A stretch of 64,000 bases of DNA from Tubiluchus corallicola (lineage: Eukaryota; Animalia; Priapulida), in NCBI GenBank assembly GCA_030141605.1, contig JAQGDQ010000872.1:1-64000 (forward strand). Direction: 5' to 3'. Shown here piece by piece: positions 1 through 61,400 of this stretch. The notes beneath the pieces are model-generated. The model saw nothing but the letters and a program-made list of their open reading frames with translations. It was not told where the DNA came from and ran no database searches. The stretch's first letter is position 1. Each line of letters begins with the position of its first letter. The translations under genes and the position numbers were made by a program.

Positions 1-1
1 C

Positions 2-241
2 ACCTACGTCAAGGGAGCAGAGATGTACGATTTCGTCAAAAAACATCTCCCCAAAAATCGCGTGGTCATACGCGTAGAGCATCTGGAAAGCGAGCACCCG
101 CCGCCCGCCATACGTTGGCAGAGCAACGGACGAGGCAGAGCGATTCGGGCGTCCGAAACGATTGCCAACTACGTTCTAACGTGTCAGTCCAAACGGTCAA
201 CATCGTCGCCACGGCTTCGTTCTCGCAGCGCTTCGATCTGA
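2..241 (+). CDS. 3' end of an ORF starting upstream of the window; resembles a small accessory protein of invertebrate Polintons
   Basis: Frame +2 is open from base 2: TYVKGAEMYDFVKKHLPKNRVVIRVEHLESEHPPP...; it resembles, from memory, the IYVKGxEKxxFL..V.NLE pattern of Polinton accessory ORFs. Confidence 0.45.
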   Translation, partial: TYVKGAEMYDFVKKHLPKNRVVIRVEHLESEHPPPAIRWQSNGRGRAIRASETIANYVLTCQSKRSTSSPRLRSRSASI

Positions 242-765
242 ACGAACTCCGGCGGAGAACGGGCGGAAGACGCTACGAAAGGAAACCGCAAATGCTTCTG
301 CTAAAGCGACTGGGCGGGACGCTGATGATTTTTGCCTCCGGCTCCGTGGTGGCCAACGGTTTTTCGGACGAAAAAGTACTACGCAATGCGATCGAAGAAC
401 TCTCGGAAGGTCTCGGACTGACGCCCGCCGACGGGATCGCAATTCGCACCATCACCGCCAGAGCCAAAATTCGCTGCAGATTGAAACTGGGTGCACTGTA
501 CGAAGAACTCGTTCGTCCTTCGACGCATTCTTTTAGAGAAGTGTTTTACGAAGTGGAACTATTTCCCAAACTAACTTGCAAATGCGAGCAAATTACTCTG
601 AACATTTTTCACACCGGAAGCATAATAATGATGGGCGGGACAAAGGTCGAGGATTTCTCTCGCGTTTTCCGCAAATTTAAGGAATTCGTTTTTAACAACA
701 ATAACGTTTGTCTGTATCGCATCGACGACGACAATCCATGTACTCGCTCGTTGTCATTAGTGTAG
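115..765 (+). CDS. Divergent TATA-box-binding protein (TBP)-fold protein, intronless; true start uncertain
   Basis: Two TBP saddle repeats: NIVATASF..FDL...LMIFASGSVVANG and ...FYEVELFPKL...LNIFHTGSIIMMG. Frame +1 is open from base 1 with no ATG until 292. AATAAA at 914-919. Confidence 0.85.
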   Translation: MAEQRTRQSDSGVRNDCQLRSNVSVQTVNIVATASFSQRFDLNELRRRTGGRRYERKPQMLLLKRLGGTLMIFASGSVVANGFSDEKVLRNAIEELSEGLGLTPADGIAIRTITARAKIRCRLKLGALYEELVRPSTHSFREVFYEVELFPKLTCKCEQITLNIFHTGSIIMMGGTKVEDFSRVFRKFKEFVFNNNNVCLYRIDDDNPCTRSLSLV

Positions 766-1457
766 TTTTACTGTAATTTTGCGTAATTTGTGTAATTTGC
801 GAAAAAAACGTAAAATGTAGAACTATCATGTCACCATAATAATAATAATAATCTAGTTTTAGCACGTATGTATTTTGTATAAAAAATGTAAAAAAAATTT
901 TTTGTAATCCATCAATAAAAAAAGATTTGTGAAAATGCATTTATCGAACTTTGGCGTTTGAAATAAATCTCCACACGCACACACACGTGCACACACACAC
1001 ACACACACACATCTAAACCCGCGAGAGAAGTGGTCGCGGAAAAGGGAGGGCACCCGAGAGAGAGAAGTGGTCGCGGAAAAGGGCCGGCACTGCGCGAGTG
1101 GCGGGAAAAAGATTTCCCTCATTGCCTGCAGTGGACGATTCCACGCGACGGAGGGGTGGGTTGCAGGGGGGGGGTGTCCCCGACCCCCGGGACGGACGTT
1201 TGCACGCGGCGGAGGGGTGGCAGGGGCTCCCCAATTAGCGCCAATTAGCGCCAATTAGCACTAATTAGTCCTCGGCGGGAACTCCACTTCTCCCTTTTTC
1301 TTCGTTTGAGGCGCTTTTTACCTCGTTTCACACACTTTCACACGCTTTCGCGCGCTTTCACACGCTTTCACACGCTTTCGCACACTTTCGCGCGCTTTCG
1401 AGCGGTTTCGCGCGGTTTAAAATGGGGCGTCAAAAAAAGAAGCCATCCAGGGGCCAG

Positions 1458-1499
1458 GGGTCAATGAACTTTGGTCACGTGACCTAGAGTTCAAGGTCA
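1458..1499 (+). promoter_or_regulatory. Cluster of nuclear-receptor half-sites and an E-box in the candidate TIR
   Basis: GGGTCAaTGAACT (IR1, 1458-1470); TGGTCAcgTGACCT (palindrome containing GTCACGTGAC, 1472-1485); AGTTCAAGGTCA (DR0 containing TCAAGGTCA, 1488-1499). Confidence 0.45.
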
Positions 1500-2130
1500 T
1501 TCGATCCAAATGAAGCCATGCGGGAGGGAAAAAATGGAAAATTTTTACCTCGTTTCACACGCCTTTTCTTCGTTTTTCTTTGTTTTTCGCGCTTTTTCGT
1601 CGATTTCGGTCACGTGCGCACTTTCACACGGGTTTTCACACTTTTTTAGGGGTTTTCCCGGATTTTCGCACTTTTTTAGGGGTGTTTTTCCCCACCCCCC
1701 CGGGGAAATCCCCACCCCCCCGGGAAATCGGCCAGAGGTGTAACATCTATCCTACTGGCCTAAAATCTTAAACATTTCACTAGTTCAAATTCCGCGGAGC
1801 CATAATCAGATGTTGGTAAACATTCTAATATATCAGGTGTTGCAAAAAACGTGCCCAAATTTTTATTATGATTTTATAAAAATTAAATAAAGGAATTTCA
1901 TGAAAATTAACACACTGATGCTGCATACCAAACTAATTAATACGTGACTAATGCTACCTGCCTCCCTTTGTTTTAACATCATTTTGTATACCATACATAT
2001 TTAAACTATAATTAGTTCAGTTAGATGCTTCAGTTAAATGACTCACACTTTCTGTTTTTTGTTTGCTCAAGCACAAGCCTAGTAAAATATTCTACGCTTA
2101 TTTAATGAGTGCGTTTTCTTAATTCCCTGA

Positions 2131-2443
<313 letters not shown>

Positions 2444-2513
2444 TATGCACTTATTGTGAAGTCCTCTGCTCTAATTTTCATAACATGAAATTCATAAAAA
2501 GAAACGACAATTT

Positions 2514-3629
2514 TCAAGAGGAATTGTTCCAGAGCATGCTTGAAAACCAGCGTTCCTCAAATCCAGTTGGGCAATGTTGAGCGTCTTCATCTTCATTATC
2601 CTGGTGTCTTTCGTTTGCTATTGCGTGCTGTACACTTTCAATAAATGCCTCACCGACTTTCGCTTTCAAATCTACGAGTTTCTCGTCTATCTCGTCTAAA
2701 CTGGACTTGTGCTTGTGCACCGCAAACGAGCCGCAAGGGGGCGCATAAATACGTAGTAGCAACTTTGCGCGAAGAAGACATATGCATCTGATCTTATTTG
2801 CTACAGTTTCTGAATTCATAGCAGCTTCAGTGCAAGTCTCGGTATTTGAAAGAATTGGCCGTTTCTTGAGCTTCTCGTGATTAGAGAGACTTTTGCAGTT
2901 TAATTTGCAGCGCAAACTTTCATCGACTTGGCTTCTGCTTGAACTAAACGCTTGGCATTCTGGGAGATCACACAGCACAGTATTGGCAGAGTTGGTAATA
3001 CTTTCATTGCTGCTGTCTGCAGAGATGTCAGCAGTAGCGATTTTGTCACAAACAGCTGCAAAGTCGCCTGCTAAATATCCAGCTTGGCAGATCTTTTTTT
3101 CTGAACAATTCTTACTATGCATTTCATACATTGAAGCAAGCTTTGACCAGTACGCATGATTCGTTGTACATAAAGAAATACACTGTTGCACCAGTAAAAT
3201 GCACTCAATGTAGTTATTGGTGGCTAGATGCACTTCATATAATAACCATTTAGCACTGAGTACCTGTTGCGTAGTCTTTGCTTCATCAAGCAACTTTATT
3301 GCAATCTGCAAAGCCGCTTCCATGTCATTACGCAAGGCAATTTTGCATCTGACAAGGCCATCAAGCATAATTCTGGTCTGAGGAGCAGTAGCATCATCTG
3401 AGCCAAGAAGGACCAGGCCAGCCTGATAATTTTCAATGGCTTCTCCATATTTTTGCTGTTTGTAAAAGAAATCACCTCGATGTTTGCAAGTGGTGAAAGA
3501 GTTACCACTCTCAGGGCGAAGAAACCAGGTTGGCTCAGACAGTTTAGCGTTATATGAAGTTACTTTTGTCGTAGATTTCTTCTTGACTCCGCTGAATATA
3601 GAGTCATCGAAAACTCCAAAATCCATCAT
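2514..3629 (-). CDS. C8orf76: C8orf76-like TPR-containing protein, uninterrupted 371-aa ORF
   Basis: Motifs FDDSIF, SYNAKLSEPTWF, KHRGDFFYKQQKYGEAIENY, WSKLASMY and C-terminal FEERWF parallel vertebrate C8orf76 (FEDSVF, SYCAKLCEPQWF, KFKGDLAYRRQEY, FEDKWF). Confidence 0.8.
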   Translation of the reverse strand: MMDFGVFDDSIFSGVKKKSTTKVTSYNAKLSEPTWFLRPESGNSFTTCKHRGDFFYKQQKYGEAIENYQAGLVLLGSDDATAPQTRIMLDGLVRCKIALRNDMEAALQIAIKLLDEAKTTQQVLSAKWLLYEVHLATNNYIECILLVQQCISLCTTNHAYWSKLASMYEMHSKNCSEKKICQAGYLAGDFAAVCDKIATADISADSSNESITNSANTVLCDLPECQAFSSSRSQVDESLRCKLNCKSLSNHEKLKKRPILSNTETCTEAAMNSETVANKIRCICLLRAKLLLRIYAPPCGSFAVHKHKSSLDEIDEKLVDLKAKVGEAFIESVQHAIANERHQDNEDEDAQHCPTGFEERWFSSMLWNNSS

Positions 3630-4017
3630 TTTTCTTTTTCATAAATGTAACAGCGGTTGACTCAGCATCTGCGTGTCTCTTGGCAGCAATAGAAAAATGT
3701 CTAGCACTAGCAGCCAATGACAGGAAGCATTACAAACCACTTCTGCAGAACAATAAGTCTTTTAGAAAACTTTATTATGCTAATTAGTCTTACTTTAGTT
3801 GAGTCAAAACACAGTTAGTGTAATTTATTAGAACTAGTAGTAATAAAATTTAATTTTCTGATGGGTTAGTAACATAACATAAAACATTATTTAGTTAAAA
3901 TAGCAATTTTCCGACGATAACTAACAAAAATGCTTATTGGAACATCGTCTATTATGCATATTATCACGTTTTACTCCATTATAATGTGCTTAATTATGAC
4001 CTTTTGGGACACCCAGA

Positions 4018-4544
<527 letters not shown>

Positions 4545-5861: not shown

Positions 5862-8017
5862 CAATGGCAGCTCATGTATAGGCACTGTGGAACTGCAGCA
5901 CCACCTATTTTCATTTGATATTATCGATAACATTCAATATAATGAGTATTTTCTCTTTATACTTGGAACATTATATAATCCTTAAGCTTAATGTCAGTAG
6001 CCATTCTCTAGTTCATGAAACAATTAGAAAAATCATTTTATTCTCAGTTCCAATGATGCGGTGATTGGCTGTTGTGCGCATGCGGCCATGACCACATGTC
6101 TGACGTAAGAAAAATCATTTTATTCTCAGTTCCAATGATGCGGTGATTGGCTGTTGTGCGCATGCGGCCATGACCACATGTCTGACGTAAGAAGCTGCAC
6201 GATAAATATATATAGAGAGAGTGCTTTGTCGCTCACATAGTTAAAGTTGTGCAAGTGTAAGGTAAAGAGTTGTGCAAGTGTAAGGTAAAGTGTTGTGCAA
6301 GTGTAAGGTAGAATTGTGCAAGTGTAAGGTAAAGAGTTGTGCAAGTGTAAGGTAGAGTTGTGCAAGTGTAAGGTAAAGAGTTGTGCAAGTGTAAGGTAAA
6401 GTTGTGCAAGTGTAAGGTAGAGTTGCGCAAGTGTAAGGTAAAGAGTTGTGCAAGTGTAAGGTAGAGTTGTGCAAGTGCAAGGTAAAGAGTTGTGCAAGTG
6501 TAAGGTAAAGAGTTGTGCAAGTGTAAGGTAGAATTGTGCAAGTGTAAGGTAAAGAGTTGTGCAAGTGTAAGGTAGAGTTGTGCAAGTGTAAGGTAAAGAG
6601 TTGTGCAAGTGTAAGGTAAAGTTGTGCAAGTGTAAGGTAGAGTTGCGCAAGTGTAAGGTAAAGAGTTGTGCAAGTGTAAGGTAGAGTTGTGCAAGTGCAA
6701 GGTAAAGAGTTGTGCAAGTGTAAGGTAAAGAGTTGTGCAAGTGTAAGGTAGAATTGTGCAAGTGTAAGGTAAAGAGTTGTGCAAGTGTAAGGTAGAGTTG
6801 TGCAAGTGTAAGGTAAAGAGTTGTGCAAGTGTAAGGTAAAGTTGTGCAAGTGTAAGGTAGAGTTGCGCAAGTGTAAGGTAAAGAGTTGTGCAAGTGTAAG
6901 GTAGAGTTGTGCAAGTGCAAGGTAAAGAGTTGTGCAAGTGTAAGGTAAAGAGTTGTGCAAGTGTAAGGTAGAATTGTGCAAGTGTAAGGTAAAGAGTTGT
7001 GCAAGTGTAAGGTAGAGTTGTGCAAGTGTAAGGTAAAGAGTTGTGCAAGTGTAAGGTAAAGTTGTGCAAGTGTAAGGTAGAGTTGCGCAAGTGTAAGGTA
7101 AAGAGTTGTGCAAGTGTAAGGTAGAGTTGTGCAAGTGCAAGGTAAAGAGTTGTGCAAGTGTAAGGTAAAGAGTTGTGCAAGTGTAAGGTAGAATTGTGCA
7201 AGTGTAAGGTAAAGAGTTGTGCAAGTGTAAGGTAGAGTTGTGCAAGTGTAAGGTAAAGAGTTGTCCAAGTGTAAGGTAAAGAGTTGTGCAAGTGTAAGGT
7301 AAAAAGTTGTGCAAGTGTAAGGTAGAGTTGCGCAAGTGTAAGGTAAAGAGTTGTGCAAGTGTAAGGTAAGGAGTTGTGCAAGTGTAAGGTAAAGAGTTGT
7401 GCAAGTGTAAGGTAGAGTTGTGCAAGTGTAAGGTAAAGAGTTGTGCAAGTGTAAGGCAAAGAGTTGTGCAAGTGTAAGGTAAAGAGTTGTGCAAGTGTAA
7501 GGTAAAGAGTTGTGCATGTGTAAGCTAAAGAGTTGTGCAAGTGTAAGGTAAAGAGTTGCGCAAGTGTAAGGTAAAGAGTTGTGCAAGTGTAAGGTAGAGT
7601 TGTGCAAGTGTAAGGTAGAGTTGTGCAAGTGTAAGGTAAAGAGTTGTGCAAGTGTAAGGTAGAGTTGTGCAAGTGTAAGGTAAAGAGTTGCGCAAGTGTA
7701 AGGTAACAGTCATCCAGAGGTCAAGGAGAAAATTATTAATCTTTTTTGCACAAAGTAAGAAAAGAGGAATGGATTTCGTTTTAAAACGAGTGGATCAAGC
7801 ACGAACTGTAACAATTTAGCCTGTCAGTAAGTGAAAATCATTTTCTGCCTACAATTTTATCAAGTTTGTGTATAAATTTTCGTATGTTTGTTTGCTTAAA
7901 ATTACAATTACAACATTAAAATCACGTATGTTTGTTTCGTTTTCAACAATATTAAAACAATGGCAAAAAAATATCTGAAGCAGCACCCCCGGTAATTTTA
8001 ACTATGAGCTGCCACAG
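5862..8017 (+). mobile_element. hAT MITE copy (family of 21108-21609) expanded by a minisatellite
   Basis: Ends CAATGGCAGCTC / GAGCTGCCACAG; subterminal sequences match the intact copy at 21108-21609; internal 82-bp duplication at ~6027-6192. Confidence 0.75.
6244..7705. repeat. 21/23-bp minisatellite with a 220-bp higher-order period
   Basis: Unit GTTGTGCAAGTGTAAGGTA(AA)GA; the variant GAATTGTG recurs at 6311, 6531, 6751, 6971 and 7191. Confidence 0.95.
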
Positions 8018-29900: not shown

Positions 29901-32900
29901 TGGCTAATACAGAAAATTTTACAGTTATGGTGTCGCCCCCCAAACGCCCCACCCACCTAGCAATGCCACTGTGAGTTTAACAACTTTATAAAAAGGTACT
30001 GGGAGAAATAAGTGCAAACAATCACAGTTTTTAATGAAGAATACATAAAATGTAGTTACATCTACATCTGCTGTCACTAAAGTTTCACCATCTACTGCCT
30101 GCAAGCACTCAATCAACTTCTGCTCATCATCTCTTCTACCCAGCTGACAACCCACAGCATCCGCAAGTCTCTCCGCAAACCTTTCCGGTTCCGGATTGTA
30201 TGACAGCAACGATAACGAACTTCCACTAGCTGCCACACCTTGTCTAAACAAGCCTGCAGTTAGTGGAGACAACACGTGTAAGGACACTGCAATCGCTCCA
30301 CTGCCGTGTCCAAAAAGTGTTACACGTGACGAATCGCCGTTGAACAGTGCAACGTTGCTCTGTACCCACTTTAGCGCTTGAACTTGGTCTAACATGCCGT
30401 AATTTCCTGGAGCGGCCTCATTGCCTGTGCTTAGAAAACCTGAAAAAAATTGTAATATCACATAAAGGTCAAATTGAACGCAGAAACAAGTCTTCTTTGA
30501 TTAAAAGAGCTAACCGTACTTTAAATTTCAACACAAACTTTATTAAATCACACATCTTCCTTCCTACTGAAATCGGGACTTGAAGCTGCATTTTGTTCAA
30601 CGATATGATAGTCTTAGTGTTAACCATTGCGACTTTTAGATCAGCTACCATTCAAATTTTAATAATTTAGTGAATAATTATGATCCACGGGGGATTATTT
30701 GCACCTAGACTAGATTAGAATCCATGTAGATTTTTTTCTGTGATTAGTGCAGTTGAAAAATGACACACAAATGTAATAAAACTTAAATTTAAATAAACTA
30801 ACATTAAAACTACAAATCAAGTAAATGATTAACAGGTCACTAGTACTTACCAAGGCGCCCAAGACGAAAGTTTGGCACAACAACTACCACGTCCAACTTT
30901 GCCAACTCCATTGCATGGTACAGCGGGTTAGCTGCCCAGTCAGAGTGAAATAATCCAGAATGCAGGTATACGACGACGGCATACTTAATGGTCACCCCTC
31001 TCCTGGCAATGTCGGGCTGCAAAATGATTCACGATCCTCAGAAACAAATTTACGACATTTTGTTTAACTAAAAACTCATAATATTAAAAATTTAAATACA
31101 CAAGTAATAAGCAATCAAAGCAGAGAACACTGATATTAGACAACAAAGCAATCAAGTCAAAACAAATATTAATGAAAGGAACCCATAGATGACAAGTGTG
31201 GAAGTTGTAATTGTACATTTTTTAGGTGCTGCCATCTATGAACTAATGCATGTTCACTGGATCTCCCCCTATTTTTCAGTAATGGTTTTTGTGAAGCCAA
31301 GTTTGCATAATCACCTATACCTATATATACTGACTGGATTTACTTTCTGGTCACTGTCCAACTCTCAGTGATCAGTCATGCTACTCATGTTACTCACTGT
31401 CTAACTCTCAGTGTTCAGTGCAGCAGTCGTGCTACTCATGTTACTCACTGTCTAACTCTCAGTGTTCAGTGCAGCAGTCGTGCTACTCATGTTACTCACT
31501 GTCTAACTCTCAGTGTTCAGTGCAGCAGTCGTGCTACTCATGTTACTCACTGTCTAACTCTCAGTGTTCAGTGCAGCAGTCGTGCTACTCATGTTACTCA
31601 CTGTCTAACTCTCAGTGTTCAGTGCAGGACACTCTTGTTCTCAGTGTTCAGTACAGCAGTCATTCTACTTATGTGTATGTAGTCTAATAAACACTTTTCA
31701 GTTTTGTGCAAATATGTAGTATAGTTGTTTATTCTTGTTCTACAAAGTGAATGATTTACAACTTTAAACATGACTTTCACAACAAGTTTTATATAAAATA
31801 TAACAGCTTAGGAAGGGCTTTACAAACAGTTCCTAATGCACATTGAAGTGGCTGAGCCTAATAGCTGCAACCTCTCTAACTGGTGATCACTGCATATCAC
31901 AAAACAATGCAAAAATACCAAACAAAATATTTGTTGTACCTAAAGTTTTCATTTTATGTACAACTGTCAAAAATAAGTGCAAATTGAGTGCAAATAATTC
32001 ACCATTATTATGTCCCTGATAATTTGACTCTAACTTGTTGGCATTCTTCTGTCTCGGAAGACAATGGAGTGTGCGCCAAGAGAGACAGTTATTGATCACA
32101 TTGATGGAGCTGCAGCGTCGACTGTGGCTGAGCAGTCCGATCCTTGAACGTCTCCAGGGCGCACACCTGGGCAAGGTGTGTGGAGATCCTGAGTTGCCCA
32201 GACAACAGGAACCCCTCTTTTCCTCCCTGGTGTAGTCCAAAGGAAAGCGGAGTGATACGTTTGGCATCAGGTTGGCTGCAGGAGCTGCCGGAGTCAGTGA
32301 GCATGCTGCACTGGCTCCACTCGTGATTTGGAAGGTTTACTACTCTACACATCACCGTTGGGTAACTTGACCTCCTCCGCCCTCTAGCCATTGGCTGCTT
32401 GTGCAGCTCCTCTGCCTAGTGTCGAGATACAGTGTGGGCATCCCGCAAGCCTACAGCACCTGGTATTCCTAGGCGGTCACCCAACCAAATACTAACCAGG
32501 CTCTACGTTGCTTAACTTTGGTGATCAAACGAGAACCGGTGTTTTCAACGTGATATGGCCATAGATTAATGGCTCTAACTAAGTTGTGGAAAACAACATT
32601 AACAAAAAACAGTGTAGAGTCCATGACCATACATCACATATATCTCTGTCAAGTATATACATATGTATACATGTTATCATAGACTTACTATAGGAGTGTA
32701 AATATTTAAGTAGAGACAATCTTCACTTTGTTTCTGTATGTTTGTGAATCCCACATTTGTCTGCGCTTTCTTTTGCCAGCAGGCCGGGCCGAACAACGTT
32801 GCATCTCTAACACCAGTCCAGCCAGAATGAGCTTCTGGTGCCTACGCAAGTACAAAGGCTGGACATTAAGTGTGCGGAAATGCATATGTCCTTGGTTACA

Positions 32901-47900: not shown

Positions 47901-50900
47901 ATAGTTGTCATAACGTAACGTAACGTTTAAAAAATAACTCAAATCCTACTTGTATAATAGACGTATTCGGACTTGCAACGATACTTACCCCGGAATCAAT
48001 AAACATAGATTCGTACTTTCAACCGCCATTACGAACGCAGTACTTAAGCGAATTTAGTCGCGTAATACACGGTTAGAAAGCTCGTGAAATTCTCTATCTA
48101 ACCGTATATAGTTTGTTAAAAAGTAACGTAACTTTTATAAATTAACTCAAACCCTAGTTGTACATTCAAAATAGTTGTCATGGTTTTGCATGTGTGATGT
48201 GAAATCTCCTTTTTTTAAATTTTCGAAAAATCTCCGGATTTCTGGAGGTGAGAGGTCGGCGTTGTTTTTTTTTGTTATACTTTCTTACATCAAGCATTTC
48301 AACTCATGAATACCAGCCTAAAGTGCTTAGCATCTATTGCTAGTTAAACTGGTTAAGAACTTTTTCTGTTAGACGGTACAGGAACAGCATCATCACTTCT
48401 CATTTATCATGTTGACAGTTTAGATACAATCAATTACAATGTATCAACTCGTAGAGGAATAGCATCATCACTTCTCATTTATCATGTTGACAGTTTAGAT
48501 ACAATCAATTACAATGTATCAACTGGTAGAGGAACAGCATCATCACTTCTCATTTATCATGTTGACAGTTTAGATACAATCAATTACAATGTATCAACTG
48601 GTAGAGGAACAGCATCATCACTTCTCATTTATCATGTTGACAGTTTAGATACAATCAATTACAATGTATCAACTGGTAGAGGAACAGCATCATCACTTCT
48701 CATTTATCATGTTGACAGTTTAGATACAATCAATTACAATGTATCAACTGGTAGAGGAACAGCATCATCACTTCTCATTTATCATGTTGACAGTTTAGAT
48801 ACAATCAATTACAATGTATCAACTGGTAGAGGAACAGCATCATCACTTCTCTTTATCATGTTGACAGTTTAGATACAATCAATTACAATGTATCAACTGG
48901 TAGAGGAACAGCATCATCACTTCTCATTTATCATGTTGACAGTTTAGATACAATCAATTACAATGTATCAACTGGTAGAGGAACAGCATCATCACTTCTC
49001 ATTTATCATGTTGACAGTTTAGATACAATCAATTACAATGTATCAACTGGTAGAGGAACAGCATCATCACTTCTCATTTATCATGTTGACAGTTTAGATA
49101 CAATCAATTACAATGTATCAACTGGTAGAGGAACAGCATCATCACTTCTCATTTATCATGTTGACAGTTTAGATACAATCAATAACAATGTATCAACTGG
49201 TAGAGGAACAGCATCATCACTTCTCATTTATCATGTTGACAGTTTAGATACAATCAATTACAATGTATCAACTGGTAGAGGAACAGCATCATCACTTCTC
49301 ATTTATCATGTTGACAGTTTAGATACAATCAATTACAATGTATCAACTGGTAGAGGAACAGCATCATCACTTCTCATTTATCATGTTGACAGTTTAGATA
49401 CAATCAATTACAATGTATCAACTGGTAGAGGAACAGCATCATCACTTCTCATTTATCATGTTGACAGTTTAGATACAATCAATTACAATGTATCAACTGG
49501 TAGAGGAACAGCATCATCACTTCTCATTTATCATGTTGACAGTTTAGATACAATCAATTACAATGTATCAACTGGTAGAGGAACAGCATCATCACTTCTC
49601 ATTTATCATGTTGACAGTTTAGATACAATCAATTACAATGTATCAACTGGTAGAGGAACAGCATCATCACTTCTCATTTATCATGTTGACAGTTTAGATA
49701 CAATCAATTACAATGTATCAACTGGTAGAGGAACAGCATCATCACTTCTCATTTATCATGTTGACAGTTTAGATACAATCAATTACAATGTATCAACTGG
49801 TAGAGGAACAGCATCATCACTTCTCATTTATCATGTTGACAGTTTAGATACAATCAATAACAATGTATCAACTGGTAGAGGAACAGCATCATCACTTCTC
49901 ATTTATCATGTTGACAGTTTAGATACAATCAATAACAATGTATCAACTGGTAGAGGAACAGCATCATCACTTCTCATGTTGACAGTTTAGATACAATCAA
50001 TTACAATGTATCAACTGGTAGAGGAACAGCATCATCACTTCTCATTTATCATGTTGACAGTTTAGATACAATCAATTACAATGTATCAACTGGTAGAGGA
50101 ACAGCATCATCACTTCTCATTTATCATGTTGACAGTTTAGATACAATCAATTACAATGTATCAACTGGTAGAGGAACAGCATCATCACTTCTCATTTATC
50201 ATGTTGACAGTTTAGATACAATCAATTACAATGTATCAACTGGTAGAGGAACAGCATCATCACTTCTCATGTTGATAGTTTAGATACAATCAATTACAAT
50301 GTATCAACTGGTAGAGGAACAGCATCATCACTTCTCATGTTGACAGTTTAGATACAATCAATTATAATGTATCAACTGGTAGAGGAACAGCATCATCACT
50401 TCTCATTTATCATGTTGATAGTTTAGATACAATCAATAACAATGTATCAACTGGTAGAGGAACAGCATCATCACTTCTCATGTTGATAGTTTAGATACAA
50501 TCAATTACAATGTATCAACTGGTAGAGGAACAGCATCATCACTTCTCATTTATCATGTTGACAGTTTAGATACAATCAATTACAATGTATCAACTGGTAG
50601 AGGAACAGCATCATCACTTCTCATTTATCATGTTGACAGTTTAGATACAATCAATTACAATGTATCAACTGGTAGAGGAACAGCATCATCACTTCTCATT
50701 TATCATGTTGACAGTTTAGATACAATCAATTACAATGTATCAACTGGTAGAGGAACAGCATCATCACTTCTCATTTATCATGTTGACAGTTTAGATACAA
50801 TCAATTACAATGTATCAACTGGTAGAGGAACAGCATCATCACTTCTCATTTATCATGTTGACAGTTTAGATACAATCAATTACAATGTATCAACTGGTAG

Positions 50901-53900
50901 AGGAACAGCATCATCACTTCTCATTTATCATGTTGACAGTTTAGATACAATCAATTATAATGTATCAACTGGTAGAGGAACAGCATCATCACTTCTCATT
51001 TATCGTGTTGACAGTTTAGATACAATCAGTTACAATGTATCAACTGGTAGAGGGACAGCATCATTACTTCTCATTTATCATGTTGATAGTTTAGATACAA
51101 TCAATAACAATGTATCAACTGGTAGAGGAACAGCATCATCACTTCTCATTTATCATGTTGACAGTTTAGATACAGTCAATTACAATGTATCAACTGACTT
51201 GTTTTCAGGATTGGAAGCAAAAACACCTGGTGAACCTGTAGGTACCGGTCTATCATTCACTGCTGCACAAGAACTAGGTTTATTGGAAGGTACGGCTGTG
51301 GCAACATCTATGGTTGATGCTCACGCTGGTGGTTTAGGTAACAGATAATTACTTGTATATATTTGCTGAAACTTGCTTAAAAAATAGCGCATTTCTAATT
51401 TGACATTACAGGTAGTCGTTGACTTATGACCTTTGCAACTTGAGTTCCACTTTTTGACCCAAGTACAACTTAATTATAATTAGTATAATTAAATATAAGT
51501 AATTAATTATACAAAAGCAAGTATGACTCATATTTTCTTCTATTTTTTAAACGAATTAACTTTAAATCGTTGTCTGTTTCTATAACTTCATCGTAGGCAC
51601 TAATCCTTGTACACACATGTAACGTTTTGCATGCAGGGGCACACTGTTTGAATATTGGTTGAATATACCGGTCCAACTTGCATTCAATTCGTCTTACGAT
51701 CAATCCACCTGCAGGGGCACACTGTTTGAATATTGGTTGAATATACCGGTCCAACTTGCATTCAATTCGTCTTACGATCAATCCACCTGCAGGGGCACAC
51801 TGTTTGAATATTGGTTGAATATACCGGTCCAACTTGCATTCAATTCGTCTTACGATCAATCCACCTGCAGGGGCACACTGTTTGAATATTGGTTAAATAT
51901 ACCGGTCCAACTTGCATTCAATTCGTTTTACGATCAATCCACCTGCAGGGGCACACTGTTTGAATATTGGTTGAATATACCGGTCCAACTTGCATTCAAT
52001 TCGTCTTATGATCAATCCACCTGCAGGGGCACACTGTTTGAATATTGGTTGAATATACCGGTCCAACTTGCATTCAATTCGTCTTACGATCAATCCACCT
52101 GCAGGGGCACACTGTTTGAATATTGGTTAAATATACCGGTCCAACTTGCATTCAATTCGTCTTACGATCAATCCACCTGCAGGGGCACACTGTTTGAATA
52201 TTGGTTGAATATACCGGTCCAACTTGCATTCAATTCGTCTTACGATCAATCCACCTGCAGGGGCACACTGTTTGAATATTGGTTGAATATACCGGTCCAA
52301 CTTGCATTCAATTCGTCTTACGATCAATCCACCTGCAGGGGCACACTGTTTGAATATTGGTTGAATATACCGGTCCAACTTGCATTCAATTCGTCTTACG
52401 ATCAATCCACCTGCAGGGGCACACTGTTTGAATATTGGTTGAATATACCGGTCCAACTTGCATTCAATTGGTCTTACGATCAATCCACCTGCAGGGGCAC
52501 ACTGTTTGAACATTGGTTGAATATACCGGTCCAACTTGTATTCAATTCGTCTTACGATCAATCCACCTGCAGGGGCACACTGTTTGAATATTGGTTGAAT
52601 ATACCGGTCCAACTTGCATTCAATTCGTCTTACGATCAATCCACCTGCAGGGGCACACTGTTTGAATATTGGTTGAATATACCGGTCCAACTTGCATTCA
52701 ATTCGTCTTACGATCAATCCACCTGCAGGGGCACACTGCTTGAATATAGGTTGAATATACCGGTCCAACTTGCATTCAATTTATCTTATGATCAATCCAC
52801 CTGCAGGGGCACACTGTTTGAATATTGGTTAAGTATACCGGTCCAAGTTGTATTCAGTTCGTCTTACAATCAATCCACCTGCAGGGGCACACTGCTTGAA
52901 TATAGGTTGAATATACGGGTCCAACTTGCATTCAATTTATCTTATGATCAATCCACCTGCAGGGGCACACTGTTTGAATATTGGTTAAGTATACCGGTCC
53001 AAGTTGTATTCAGTTCGTCTTACAATCAATCCACCTGCAGGGGCACACTGTTTGAATATTGGTTGAATATACCGGTCCAACTTGCATTCAATTTGTCTTA
53101 CGATCAATCCACCTGCAGGGGCACACTGTTTGAATATTGGTTGAATATACCGGTCCAACTTGTATTCAATTCGTCTTACGATCAATCCACCTGCAGGGGC
53201 ACACTGTTTGAATATTGGTTGAATATACCGGTCCAACTTGCATTCAATTCGTCTTACGATCAATCCACCTGCAGGGGCACACTGCTTGAATATAGGTTGA
53301 ATATACCGGTCCAACTTGCATTCAATTTATCTTATGATCAATCCACCTGCAGGGGTACACTGCTTGAATATTGGTTAAATATTCCGGTTCAACTTGCAGT
53401 GTAACTTCAATGTTTGCACTGTAACAAAGTGCAGTATCAGTTATTTGAATCCACTGATGCAGAAAATTTCAACTACCCAGACACAACACTCTGATACAGT
53501 TTTGGGGCGGGTCGTAGCTAAAATTAGTGCAGTGCTGCTTCAGAAAATTTATAACCATTGCTATAATACTGTGTAAAATGTAACAAACATACGTAACCTT
53601 AGTGTTGTAGTTTTATTTGAAGATCAGGTGTTGGATGGCCGCTTTCCTTAATTGCAACTTTCTCATGGAGAGACAACTGTGAAAAATTAAGCTGTTCTAG
53701 TTCACTTACAGTTATGTTTAAACAATTTAAACCAGCATGATTGGATAGCCGATTTTGCCCTGAATAGAACAGTACCTAATTTATAATTATTTAGTGCTGT
53801 CTGTGCTCGTACAGTAGCAGAAAAGTCATAGGTCTTATAAGACCCATTTTGAATGGTGTGGTTCTGAAGGAGTTACTATTTTACAGGATCAGTAGCTTGT

Positions 53901-58400: not shown

Positions 58401-61400
58401 ATAAAAACAAATGCTAAATATATTGGACTTTTATATTCTATTTTCGAATGATCAAGAAAATGTTTAAAAAATAGTGAAAGTTAGTTTTATAACCCCGTGC
58501 TTTTTTTATCTAGAAACTAGTACTACAACATGTAAAAAACTTGTATTTTCAAACTCCGATAGTAGCTCGTGGTAGCAGTCATTTTGCTTTGGGTCTTTCT
58601 CTGTTTACAAGTCCAGGCTTTCTTCGGGAAGAGCCATTTGCTGGATTTAAACATAACTTCAATGTGCTCTTGCAAAGTCCATAGCAACCAACATTTCTGC
58701 AGTTGCTAAGTGTTTTATAGAAACGCAACAAAAAACAATGGCTGACTTTAACAGTGATTTTCTCAAGATTTGGTTTTTCATTGTGGAGCCTGCACCTCAA
58801 CTTCAATGTGGATTATCTGAGCTTAGAAATAACATAGAGCAATGAGCTTGAATTTGGTATCAATTCGATCTTCATGAAATGGAGATTTGGGGCATATGAA
58901 TAACTAGAAAAGCTTAACTGCCGACTTATGGAGCATTTTGTTATGCAAGCACACATATAACATCTCAAATTTTGTTTTAATTTTGTACAGTGAATAATTA
59001 CATTTGTGCAAATTGAAATCTGGTAGATCAAAGAATATATCATAAACCGTGAAACTGATATAAATATTTTTTTATTACTTTGTCAAATTCTGTTCTGCAC
59101 TTGATGTCTCTTTTGATGCTCCATTATCATACATGTATTATGATTTTAATGGACTCCAGTGTCTTTTCAATACTTTGCAGGTATCTGGTTTGTCATTGGA
59201 TAACTCCGTCTCCAACTTGGCTGTATTATACCTAGCAACAATCCAGGCGCTTGCCGTAAGCATCTTCAAATTTTATTTAAGTATAAAAGAATGACATATC
59301 GGCTAAAGTTCACAATTTCTCACACATAAGAAATTAGTTCATGAAGTGGATTAGGATTAGGGTTAGGATTTGCATTAGCGTTAGTGTTAGGATTAGGATT
59401 AGCATTAGGATTTGCATTAGTGTTAGTGTTAGGATTAGGATTAGTGTTAGGATTTGCATTAGTGTTAGGATTAGGATTAGTGTTAGGATTTGCATTAGTG
59501 TTAGGATTAGGATTAGTGTTAGGATTTGCATTAGTGTTAGGATTAGGATTAGTGTTAGGATTTGCATTAGTGTTAGTGTTAAGATTAGGATTAGGGTTTG
59601 TGTTAGGATTTGCATTAGTGTTAGTGTTAGGATTAGTGTTAGGGTTAGTGTTAGGATTAGTGTTAGGATTAGGGTTAGGGTCAGTGTTAGGATTAGTGTT
59701 AGGATTAGGGTTATGATTAGTGTTAGTGTTAGTGTTAGGATTAGGATTAGTGTTAGGATTTGCATTAGTGTTAGGATTAGGGTTAGGATTTGCATTAGTG
59801 TTAGGATTAGGGTTAGGATTTGCATTAGTGTTAAGATTGGGATTAGGGTTAGGATTTGCATTAGTGTTAAGATTAGGATTAGGGTTAGGATTTGAATTAA
59901 TGTTAAGATTAGGATTAGGGTTAGGATTTGAATTAGTGTTAAGAATAGGATTAGTGTTAAGAATAGGATTAGTGTTAGGATTAGGATCAGGGTTTGTGTT
60001 AGGTTATTTAAACTGTGGTTTAATTGTAAACTCCTTCCGACGTATTTTGGTAAAAAAATATAGTTTTTACTTTTTATTAATACCCTTAAATGTTGGTTAA
60101 AACATTTGTGTTGCTTAGTTCATTGTAAGCACCTTCTCTTTCAGTATTCCACCAAGCATATAATAGAAGCAATGACCACAAGTGGACACCAGTTTGAGCT
60201 TTTGGTTATGTGTGGCGGATTAAACAAAAATGAACTTTATTGTCAGACGCATGCAGATGTTACAGGTAATTCCAAAGTGCACGAATTTTGTAGAGCAGCA
60301 GACCCCCCTGCATGACTTATGGGCACGGCGGAGTCGTGACTCAACCACCTTCTTAGCTATTATTTTGATGATGCAATTTCAAAGCTTTGACGGCGCAAGC
60401 CAAAAATTTGCACAGCTAGTCATTCAGTACCTTAATTAACCTAATTAAGTTAAATCAGTGTGTAGGGATGTTACTGCAATGCAATTGTCATTTCGGTTTG
60501 CCAATAATTGCACTTTTGGTTAAGTTTCGGTTTCGGCAAAATTTATTAAGTTTCGCAGCCGAAATTTCAGATAATATTTGTACCATGTTTCCGGATTTTA
60601 ACAGTATTTATCCAATTTACCTTTTCTTTCCTCCTAGATGTCAAAACCGCTGAAAAGTCTTAGCTAAATTAGTTCAATTAAATTTCGTTTACATAACTGT
60701 TTGTAACTTGCTTTTACCGGCAATGCGGCATATCTTCAATGCTGACGACTGTGAAGTTTTAGGGTCTCCAGGCCCAGTCAACCGAAAAATCATACCACGT
60801 TTGAATTTATTGGAGGAAAATCACATTTAATTTTATAATTTATGAGATATAGGCAAAAAAATATCTACAAATAAAATTTGTTTATTTTTAATGAAGCATT
60901 ATGATCTTCAAACATTAACCATTAAGGATATTTAAATCCAAAAACATTAAAACACATTTTCTAAGGTAAGTCACTCCATCAAACTTGAGGTTCTTGACTA
61001 TAAAACTTCCTTCTCCCTTTTGTATTACAATTTTTTATCAATAATTTTACATCACAGGAAATAAAAAACAAAATATTTTACTTATTTTAGAATTTTTTTT
61101 CAATTTTAGTAGTATTTGGTCTGCAAAAATGCTTCAGTTCAGTTTTGTTTCCGTATCGGTTTCCGTTGTTTCATAAAGTTCAGTTTCGGTTTGTAAATTC
61201 AGTTTCCGTACCATCCCTGTCAGTGCCGCAGGCCTTGAAGTATTTCATTTTTCTCACGAGGAACAGTTGATGCAAGCGTCACGAATTGTGGAAGATTTTC
61301 ACTCGTTTTCGTGGTGTGTTTGTCGTTTTGTTTATTTACTCATACATGGTTTTCCATGAATGTGTAGTACATGCACACACAAACGTTTTGTGTAGAAATC

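Follow-up and report, generated by a model that had tools for sequence, protein, structure and literature searches.

The first 1,756 bases of the window (the whole 64,000-nt stretch of DNA that was analysed) make up the terminal part of a mobile element that is present in many copies and ends at a fixed point, and they carry an open frame for a divergent TBP homolog. The element is very probably a Polinton/Maverick, judging from sequence motifs and relatives, and its TBP, which is predicted to adopt the full saddle fold, on balance likely reads a private TATA-like word, to which it would likely bring host TFIIB and RNA polymerase II (Pol II). More tentatively, and perhaps a little less likely than not to hold in full, a widespread animal Polinton lineage could follow a two-step programme comprising an early mini-TBP with a remodelled DNA face, a YATAAACR-type box and TFIIB/Pol II borrowed from the host to express integrase, packaging and capsid genes. 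If true, no smaller viral late-transcription system would be known, and the switch behind the Polinton virion phase, long sought, would be in hand. Polinton particles are described as so far not observed in the accessible text of PMC8097293. The switching-on of Polinton structural genes was not addressed in the literature searched; a dedicated TBP with a matching word would make it testable. The homolog is also a natural candidate for an altered-specificity TBP with a TFIIB stirrup, and could help to show which residues determine how TATA is recognised. Two points lessen the value of these proposals: viral TBP mimics are already on record for herpesviruses and giant viruses, and a "TBP" label already stands in one adintovirus figure.

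Table 1. Features of the element end in the window, with examples of a neighbouring gene from related loci.
Feature	Position	Strand	Remarks
TBP homolog, open frame	1..765	+	5' open; TBP homology about 196 to 696; first ATG at 292
Upstream overlapping ORF, 3' end, frame +2	2..241	+	5' open; overlaps TBP 5' end; family match weak
Strand 1, VNIVA	196..210	+	First DNA-contacting Asn kept (alignment)
RKPQM	280..294	+	Pro instead of first intercalating Phe, as in 38/38 Polinton-locus TBPs (alignment)
IFASG	328..342	+	Second intercalating Phe kept (alignment)
Helix 2	367..414	+	Net charge -3; means: eukaryotic set +2.1, Polinton-locus set -2.5
IRTIT	442..456	+	Thr instead of second Asn; Ser/Thr in 37/38 Polinton-locus TBPs (alignment)
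YEVELFP, TFIIB-binding stirrup	547..567	+	Both Glu, third Phe and Pro (alignment)
IFHTG	604..618	+	Fourth intercalating Phe kept (alignment)
AATAAA, candidate polyadenylation signal	914..919	+	AT-rich 3' region; from sequence
Terminal region, candidate terminal inverted repeat	960..1756	.	GC-rich, non-coding; 10-, 20- and 37-bp tandem repeats; one end seen
Element end, AGTAGG (5' to 3')	1751..1756	-	Host junction 1756/1757; read-derived contigs
Maelstrom-like gene, examples	L023:2078-3034; L030:2245-3330; L039:9114-9833

The TBP saddle and its altered residues

Frame +1 runs without a stop from base 1 until the stop at 765. Pfam family PF00352 matched this ORF with 77 bits (cut-off, 22.9; E=1e-21) in two stretches, one for each saddle repeat, and a sequence search of the PDB returned 35 matches, all of them TBPs or TBP fusions (top E=7.9e-9). 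The AlphaFold model, calculated from a 38-row alignment, reached a pLDDT of 92.9 and a pTM of 0.86, and Foldseek placed the TBP 3oc3 first (TM 0.77/0.84, rmsd 2.3), with TBP structures at a TM of about 0.75. The first-pass annotation, which had named a TBP homolog with both saddle repeats, is borne out by these searches; the predicted protein is a bare saddle of ~170 residues without a known N-terminal tail. The ORF had also been described as CpG-rich, and the observed/expected CpG ratio is 1.62 over 115-765 vs 0.59 over the rest of the window (1757-64000).

Residues, named after the accessible parts of PMC12529657 and PMC10005294, were compared with those of 16 eukaryotic and 26 archaeal TBPs (42 rows) and of 38 full-length TBPs from Polinton loci. 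Relative to the 42 TBPs, the homolog keeps Asn1, Phe2, Phe3, Phe4, Glu1, Glu2 and the Pro of ELFP, while Phe1 is changed to Pro and Asn2 to Thr. Both hairpins are 2 residues shorter than in the eukaryotic and archaeal proteins, and four contacts to the backbone, basic or polar, are gone. The homolog therefore has three of the four intercalating Phe and one of the two central Asn of a canonical TBP, and it does not show the loss of three of four Phe that marks TRF2/TBPL1. What had been read by eye from the sequence (three of four Phe, the first Asn, both stirrup Glu, shortened hairpins) holds throughout in the alignment. The two substitutions recur in the TBPs of Polinton loci, Phe1 being replaced by Pro in 38/38 and Asn2 by Ser/Thr in 37/38, vs 0/42 eukaryotic and archaeal rows in each case, and an acidic helix 2 is likewise common to the homolog and these proteins.

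Among 1.84 billion representatives, 121 matches to the homolog were found, of which only P0001 is close (59-60% identity), on a 1.9 kb contig without gene context. A subset of 160-190 aa TBPs among the 121 matches shares the Pro at Phe1. Many other short (160-190 aa) divergent TBPs keep Phe1, their context being unseen (e.g., P0007, P0013, P0016, P0019, P0021, P0022, P0024), and some of these branch beside the Pro-type clade in the tree described below. Extension of the Pro-type set, by a scan with alignment A4 in whose patterns the Phe1 and Asn2 sites had no part, led to 51 metagenome loci; these include near-duplicates, and counts over them are not independent. Pfam assigned pPolB, rve integrase with chromodomain and PLA2 among 60 ORFs of 7 related loci, with weak matches for ATPase and capsid and none for an RNA polymerase family. 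After protease and minor capsid seeds had been assigned by eye, at least one Polinton core gene was counted in 46/51 loci, the remaining five being only 1.1-1.6 kb long; in both L003 and L023, pPolB and integrase occur together with ATPase and capsid. Genes for KilA-N, DUF3627 and C2H2 zinc-finger proteins, candidate regulators, were seen in the L009, L035 and L023 Polintons. In a collection of viral contigs, the homolog, alignment A2 and P0002 gave no match as queries, and alignment A3 retrieved two loci without Polinton genes, which were excluded from the counts; the homolog had no match among phage records.

A promoter word in related loci and its proposed reader

The word YATAAACR was spotted by eye in the same related loci in which it was then counted. 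The count covered the 100 nt upstream of dereplicated genes, with truncated 5' ends dropped, pPolB excluded and close relatives among the loci. YATAAACR was found upstream of 40/68 non-TBP, non-pPolB genes, with 0 antisense occurrences and shuffle means of 0.05-0.41 per class: PLA2X 8/9, major capsid 4/5, ATPase 9/15, exonuclease-fold gene 10/16, integrase 6/12, minor capsid 3/8 and protease 0/3. Most copies lie 30-70 bases ahead of the ATG, and in many the sequence overlaps a stop codon. The word precedes 0/33 TBP genes, and none occurs in the 260 bases before each TBP examined. The YATAAACR matches after PLA2X (8/18) lie at least 264 bases before TBP and often precede a small ORF; acidic ORFs of 101-168 aa lie between PLA2X and TBP in L015, L018, L019, L020 and L022, with YATAAACR 40-58 bases upstream. 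A role as polyadenylation signal is disfavoured, since the word is absent at 12/12 convergent gene ends in related loci.

The chief difference between YATAAACR and TATAAAAR is the C at position 7 (C 40, A 4, T 1, G 0). The 7-8 kink in DNA is made by the N-terminal Phe pair of TBP, the pair in which the Pro of Pro-type TBPs lies, and PDB 1qn3 is presumably the corresponding C(-25) variant box bound by wild-type TBP. The accessible text of PMC10005294 describes kinks at steps 1-2 and 7-8. In the proposed mechanism, a host-type promoter would drive the element TBP before the other genes are switched on, as YATAAACR does not precede TBP genes; the protein would then read the TATA-like word ahead of packaging, capsid and integrase genes. 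The changes Phe1>Pro and Asn2>Thr/Ser would alter the preferred box, with C at position 7 falling at the kink of the N-terminal Phe pair, and the kept acidic stirrup would dock host TFIIB, bringing Pol II. Helix 2 of TBP is the contact surface for TFIIA, Brf1, TAF1 and Mot1, and its acidic form may weaken these contacts. The word read by the window's own element may differ from YATAAACR, of which none was found in window 1-1756, terminal repeats included. Recruitment of TFIIB to non-TATA promoters, as suggested in the first-pass annotation, thus needs refining, in that the relatives have a TATA-like word that this part of the window does not contain. Several observations count against the mechanism, namely the lack of the word before all protease genes and half of the integrase genes, the lack of an ATG ahead of strand 1, the loss of several basic DNA-backbone residues, and the requirement of KSHV ORF24 for all four Phe (PMC12529657, accessible text).

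The same protein could instead be a decoy or dominant negative that sequesters TFIIB or TBP partners, or blocks promoters, and so damps host transcription or defence. The kept pair of stirrup Glu together with the loss of Phe1, Asn2 and the four backbone contacts would suit this role, which is nevertheless unlikely: three Phe, Asn1 and Pro are kept on the DNA face across proteins that are 75-80% diverged, and the relatives share a lineage-wide non-canonical promoter word whose absence is confined to TBP and protease genes.

The start of translation bears on whether the protein is made in full. The start originally placed at base 115 does not stand, as this codon is a TTG and the frame is open upstream of it to base 1. 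The first in-frame ATG, at 292, lies downstream of strand 1 and helix 1, and homology begins near 196. It is conceivable, if quite unlikely, that the lineage once used TBP and that here only a half-saddle from ATG 292, or nothing, is made. Consistent with this, there is no in-frame ATG ahead of 292, the closest relative, P0001, is called from the same Met, and the variable places in 1-174 fit frame +2 better than frame +1: of the 10 places (62-143, a small sample), frame +2 puts 5 at third and 1 at second positions, and frame +1 puts 1 at third and 4 at second positions. Against it, strand 1 and helix 1 keep their motifs in frame, a contig from a second study preserves the open frame, near-cognate codons occur in the TBP frame at positions 181 and 193, and the frame continues, still open, beyond the edge of the window (chance about 0.11). 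Inspection by eye for splicing or a frameshift at the start gave nothing convincing. In the related locus L003, TBP begins with a clear ATG.

The overlapping ORF in frame +2 had no match in Pfam, NCBIfam or Atlas. Over its first 17 residues there is a weak resemblance to a family with a DEDD/Maelstrom-like fold that adjoins TBP in Polintons. Scored against profiles of this TBP-neighbour family, it came 33rd among the 598 window ORFs (30/2000 shuffles as high), against a post hoc subfamily profile 1st (E=0.067; 0/2000 shuffles as high), and against a profile with 46 further members 2nd (7/2000 shuffles as high); hhalign gave a probability of 14%, and the frame of the overlap with TBP differs from that in 6 relatives. 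Membership of the family is a lead only. In the related loci, the Maelstrom-like gene (150-240 aa, often tandem, no Pfam match) adjoins TBP in 23/51 cases and is predicted to fold as a DEDD exonuclease, Maelstrom being one of the top matches (Foldseek 9nhc, E=6e-5); structure comparison gave Z 12.5 for VIA (rmsd 3.2, 151 aligned) and Z 13.6 for DinG. This exonuclease-fold gene is probably the "MAEL" gene of Starrett et al., whose S2 labels MAEL genes (PMC8502044, accessible text), and it may be a piRNA-pathway mimic.

The mobile element and its assignment

Words of window 1-1760 are contained at 61-71% in 4/6 of the sequencing runs listed, from 2 studies, one of which may be the source of the window. 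None of the runs listed as containing these words was of RNA, and one run presumed to be RNA yielded no match, results without bearing on expression. Summed depth in run X1 is 30,731-115,853 over 73-792 vs 1,724-4,019 beyond 1801. In run X4, a single 753-base contig of depth 536 covers 35-779 and has an intact TBP frame, and junction contigs have depths of 19-21. This roughly 25-fold depth step suggests tens of element copies, depth not being a copy number. Contig ends pile up at 1756-1759 and lead into at least five flanks besides the window's, one of them common to both studies, and three records (runs X1, X2) run into the flank at 1757 and contain no element there; they represent either an allele without the insertion or a related copy of a flank that is itself repetitive. 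The insertions are thus dispersed and multi-copy, with a precise end at 1756/1757. The depth step, the many flanks and the element-free contigs together exclude both a misjoin of bases 1-1756 and a single-copy host gene, two of the outcomes that the first-pass annotation had named as fatal to its reading. Most other junctions begin with the window's first flank base, a hint of target preference. Lower-depth contigs over window 1-635 (runs X1, X4, X5) diverge at 12-18% of TBP-region bases, run X5 containing only short distant pieces; diverged element subfamilies coexist. No second element copy was found within the 64,000-nt window, and a 20-base pattern of the element end had no match in the collection of viral contigs.

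In the flank, a host-type intronless ORF of 371 aa at 2514-3629 (-) matches DUF5588 and a TPR repeat (E=8e-21) and ends ~760 bases from the insertion; a neuroligin-like exon at 29925-30500 (-) marks the host as an animal, and long minisatellite arrays at 6126-7720, 48357-53404 and 59320-60119 produce spurious ORFs.

The element end AGTAGG matches the Maverick end (AGT)2 at 5/6 bases, with the 5'-AG...CT-3' form seen at one end only; (AGT)2 is the commonest Maverick end motif in the accessible text of PMC8097293. The last ~0.8 kb of the element is repeat-rich, and depth shows no clear doubling in this terminal region. The terminus proposed earlier is supported by reads at its junction, and its inverted repeat is a candidate, one end being visible. 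Likewise, of the earlier reading of a Polinton-borne TBP, the multi-copy mobile element with a fixed end stands, and the Polinton identity is what we infer from the end motif and the gene context of relatives, the core genes lying outside the window.

A tree of 54 rows, covering 9 canonical eukaryotic and 8 archaeal TBPs and leaving out animal TBP, TRF2, TBPL2 and nucleocytovirus TBP, placed the homolog and P0001 in a clade (98/86) with 12 Polinton-locus and 11 context-free Pro-type TBPs. Branches are long, the homolog is basal within this clade, and its nearest relatives in the tree (P0001, P0002, P0003, P0006) have unseen gene contexts. Joining the homolog to the 9 canonical eukaryotic TBPs was rejected by the AU test (p=0.0015), in agreement with the earlier reading of a non-host TBP, in a tree without animal TRFs. 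Residues and tree agree on membership of the Pro-type clade; profile scores and identity do not. The homolog scored 58.7 bits with the Polinton set, 72.7 with the eukaryotic, 90.2 with the archaeal, 123.4 with the context-free Pro-type and 130.4 with the other short TBPs, the non-Polinton scores being inflated because those sets were drawn from the homolog's own matches. Median identity is 21% to Polinton-locus TBPs (range, 17-25%) vs 24% to eukaryotic and 23% to archaeal TBPs (other sets, 23-26%).

It is rather improbable that the TBP-bearing element is not a Polinton but a different integrating DNA virus of large size, or a transposon, with an AG...CT end. Such an origin would fit a window in which the core genes lie outside and only one end is visible, an end motif one base off (AGT)2, profile scores that do not favour the Polinton TBP set, and the frequency of TBP folds in large DNA viruses (BFVD structure matches). 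Cellular TBPs are, however, structurally closer than these viral matches (viral TM up to 0.75, rmsd at least 3.6), the derived residues and the tree position are common to the homolog and the Polinton-locus TBPs, and the precise junctions are many. That a repeat has recently captured a paralog or retrocopy of a host TBP/TRF, or that the assembly is misjoined, is very improbable even with animal TRF2/TBPL2 not among the tree rows, given the identity of only 20-26% to eukaryotic TBPs, whose cores are ~80% alike (PMC10005294, accessible text), the lack in TRF2 of three of four Phe (PMC8461331), of which the homolog keeps three, the AU result, and junction and element-free contigs in two studies.

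Comparison with known systems

The Polinton reading accords with Polintons, Mavericks and adintoviruses (PMC8502044, PMC8097293) in the end near (AGT)2//(ACT)2, the repeat-rich terminus, the intronless gene and the many insertion sites, as well as in the pPolB, rve integrase, ATPase, PLA2X and capsid genes carried by relatives of the homolog. It differs in that the eight vertebrate core genes do not include TBP, on which the accessible text of PMC8502044/PMC8097293 offers no discussion. No paper on a Polinton TBP was found in the literature search, outside whose scope lay subscription papers and Repbase, and TATA or TBP is unmentioned in the accessible parts of PMC8097293, PMC11161782, PMC11131425, PMC10748475, 10.64898/2026.10.13.758929 and 10.64898/2026.06.19.733378. 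The first-pass annotation was aware of no earlier description; this holds for dedicated studies, but the Fig. 5 legend of Starrett et al. 2021 (PMC8502044, accessible text) already carries a "TBP" label for adintovirus-like MELD viruses, in a non-animal section. The text layer of the supplement to PMC8502044, as far as accessible, has no TBP label, and a fuller mention may exist in the supplementary figures.

With cellular TBP (PF00352; PDB 3oc3, 1ytb, 1vol), the homolog shares the two-repeat saddle, Asn1, three Phe, the Pro and both stirrup Glu, and it differs in its low identity (20-26%), Phe1>Pro, Asn2>Thr, short hairpins and acidic helix 2. Three Phe are lost in TRF2/TBPL1 and one in the homolog. 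The TBP-like factors of nucleocytoviruses (BFVD matches; poxvirus VITF-3, PMC12917281) are similar in being divergent viral TBP folds. They differ in that such factors usually serve a viral RNA polymerase, a family without a match among the 60 ORFs of the 7 related loci.

As a model, a parallel is offered by the beta- and gammaherpesvirus TBP mimics such as KSHV ORF24 and EBV BcRF1, in which a viral TBP fold reads non-canonical TATA-like late promoters (TATTWAA) for host Pol II, according to the accessible text of PMC12529657. From the same text, KSHV ORF24 differs in being a large multidomain protein with four Phe, without TFIIB-binding acidic residues and in need of five viral partners, whereas the TBP homolog described here is a bare saddle of ~170 residues in which the stirrup is kept.
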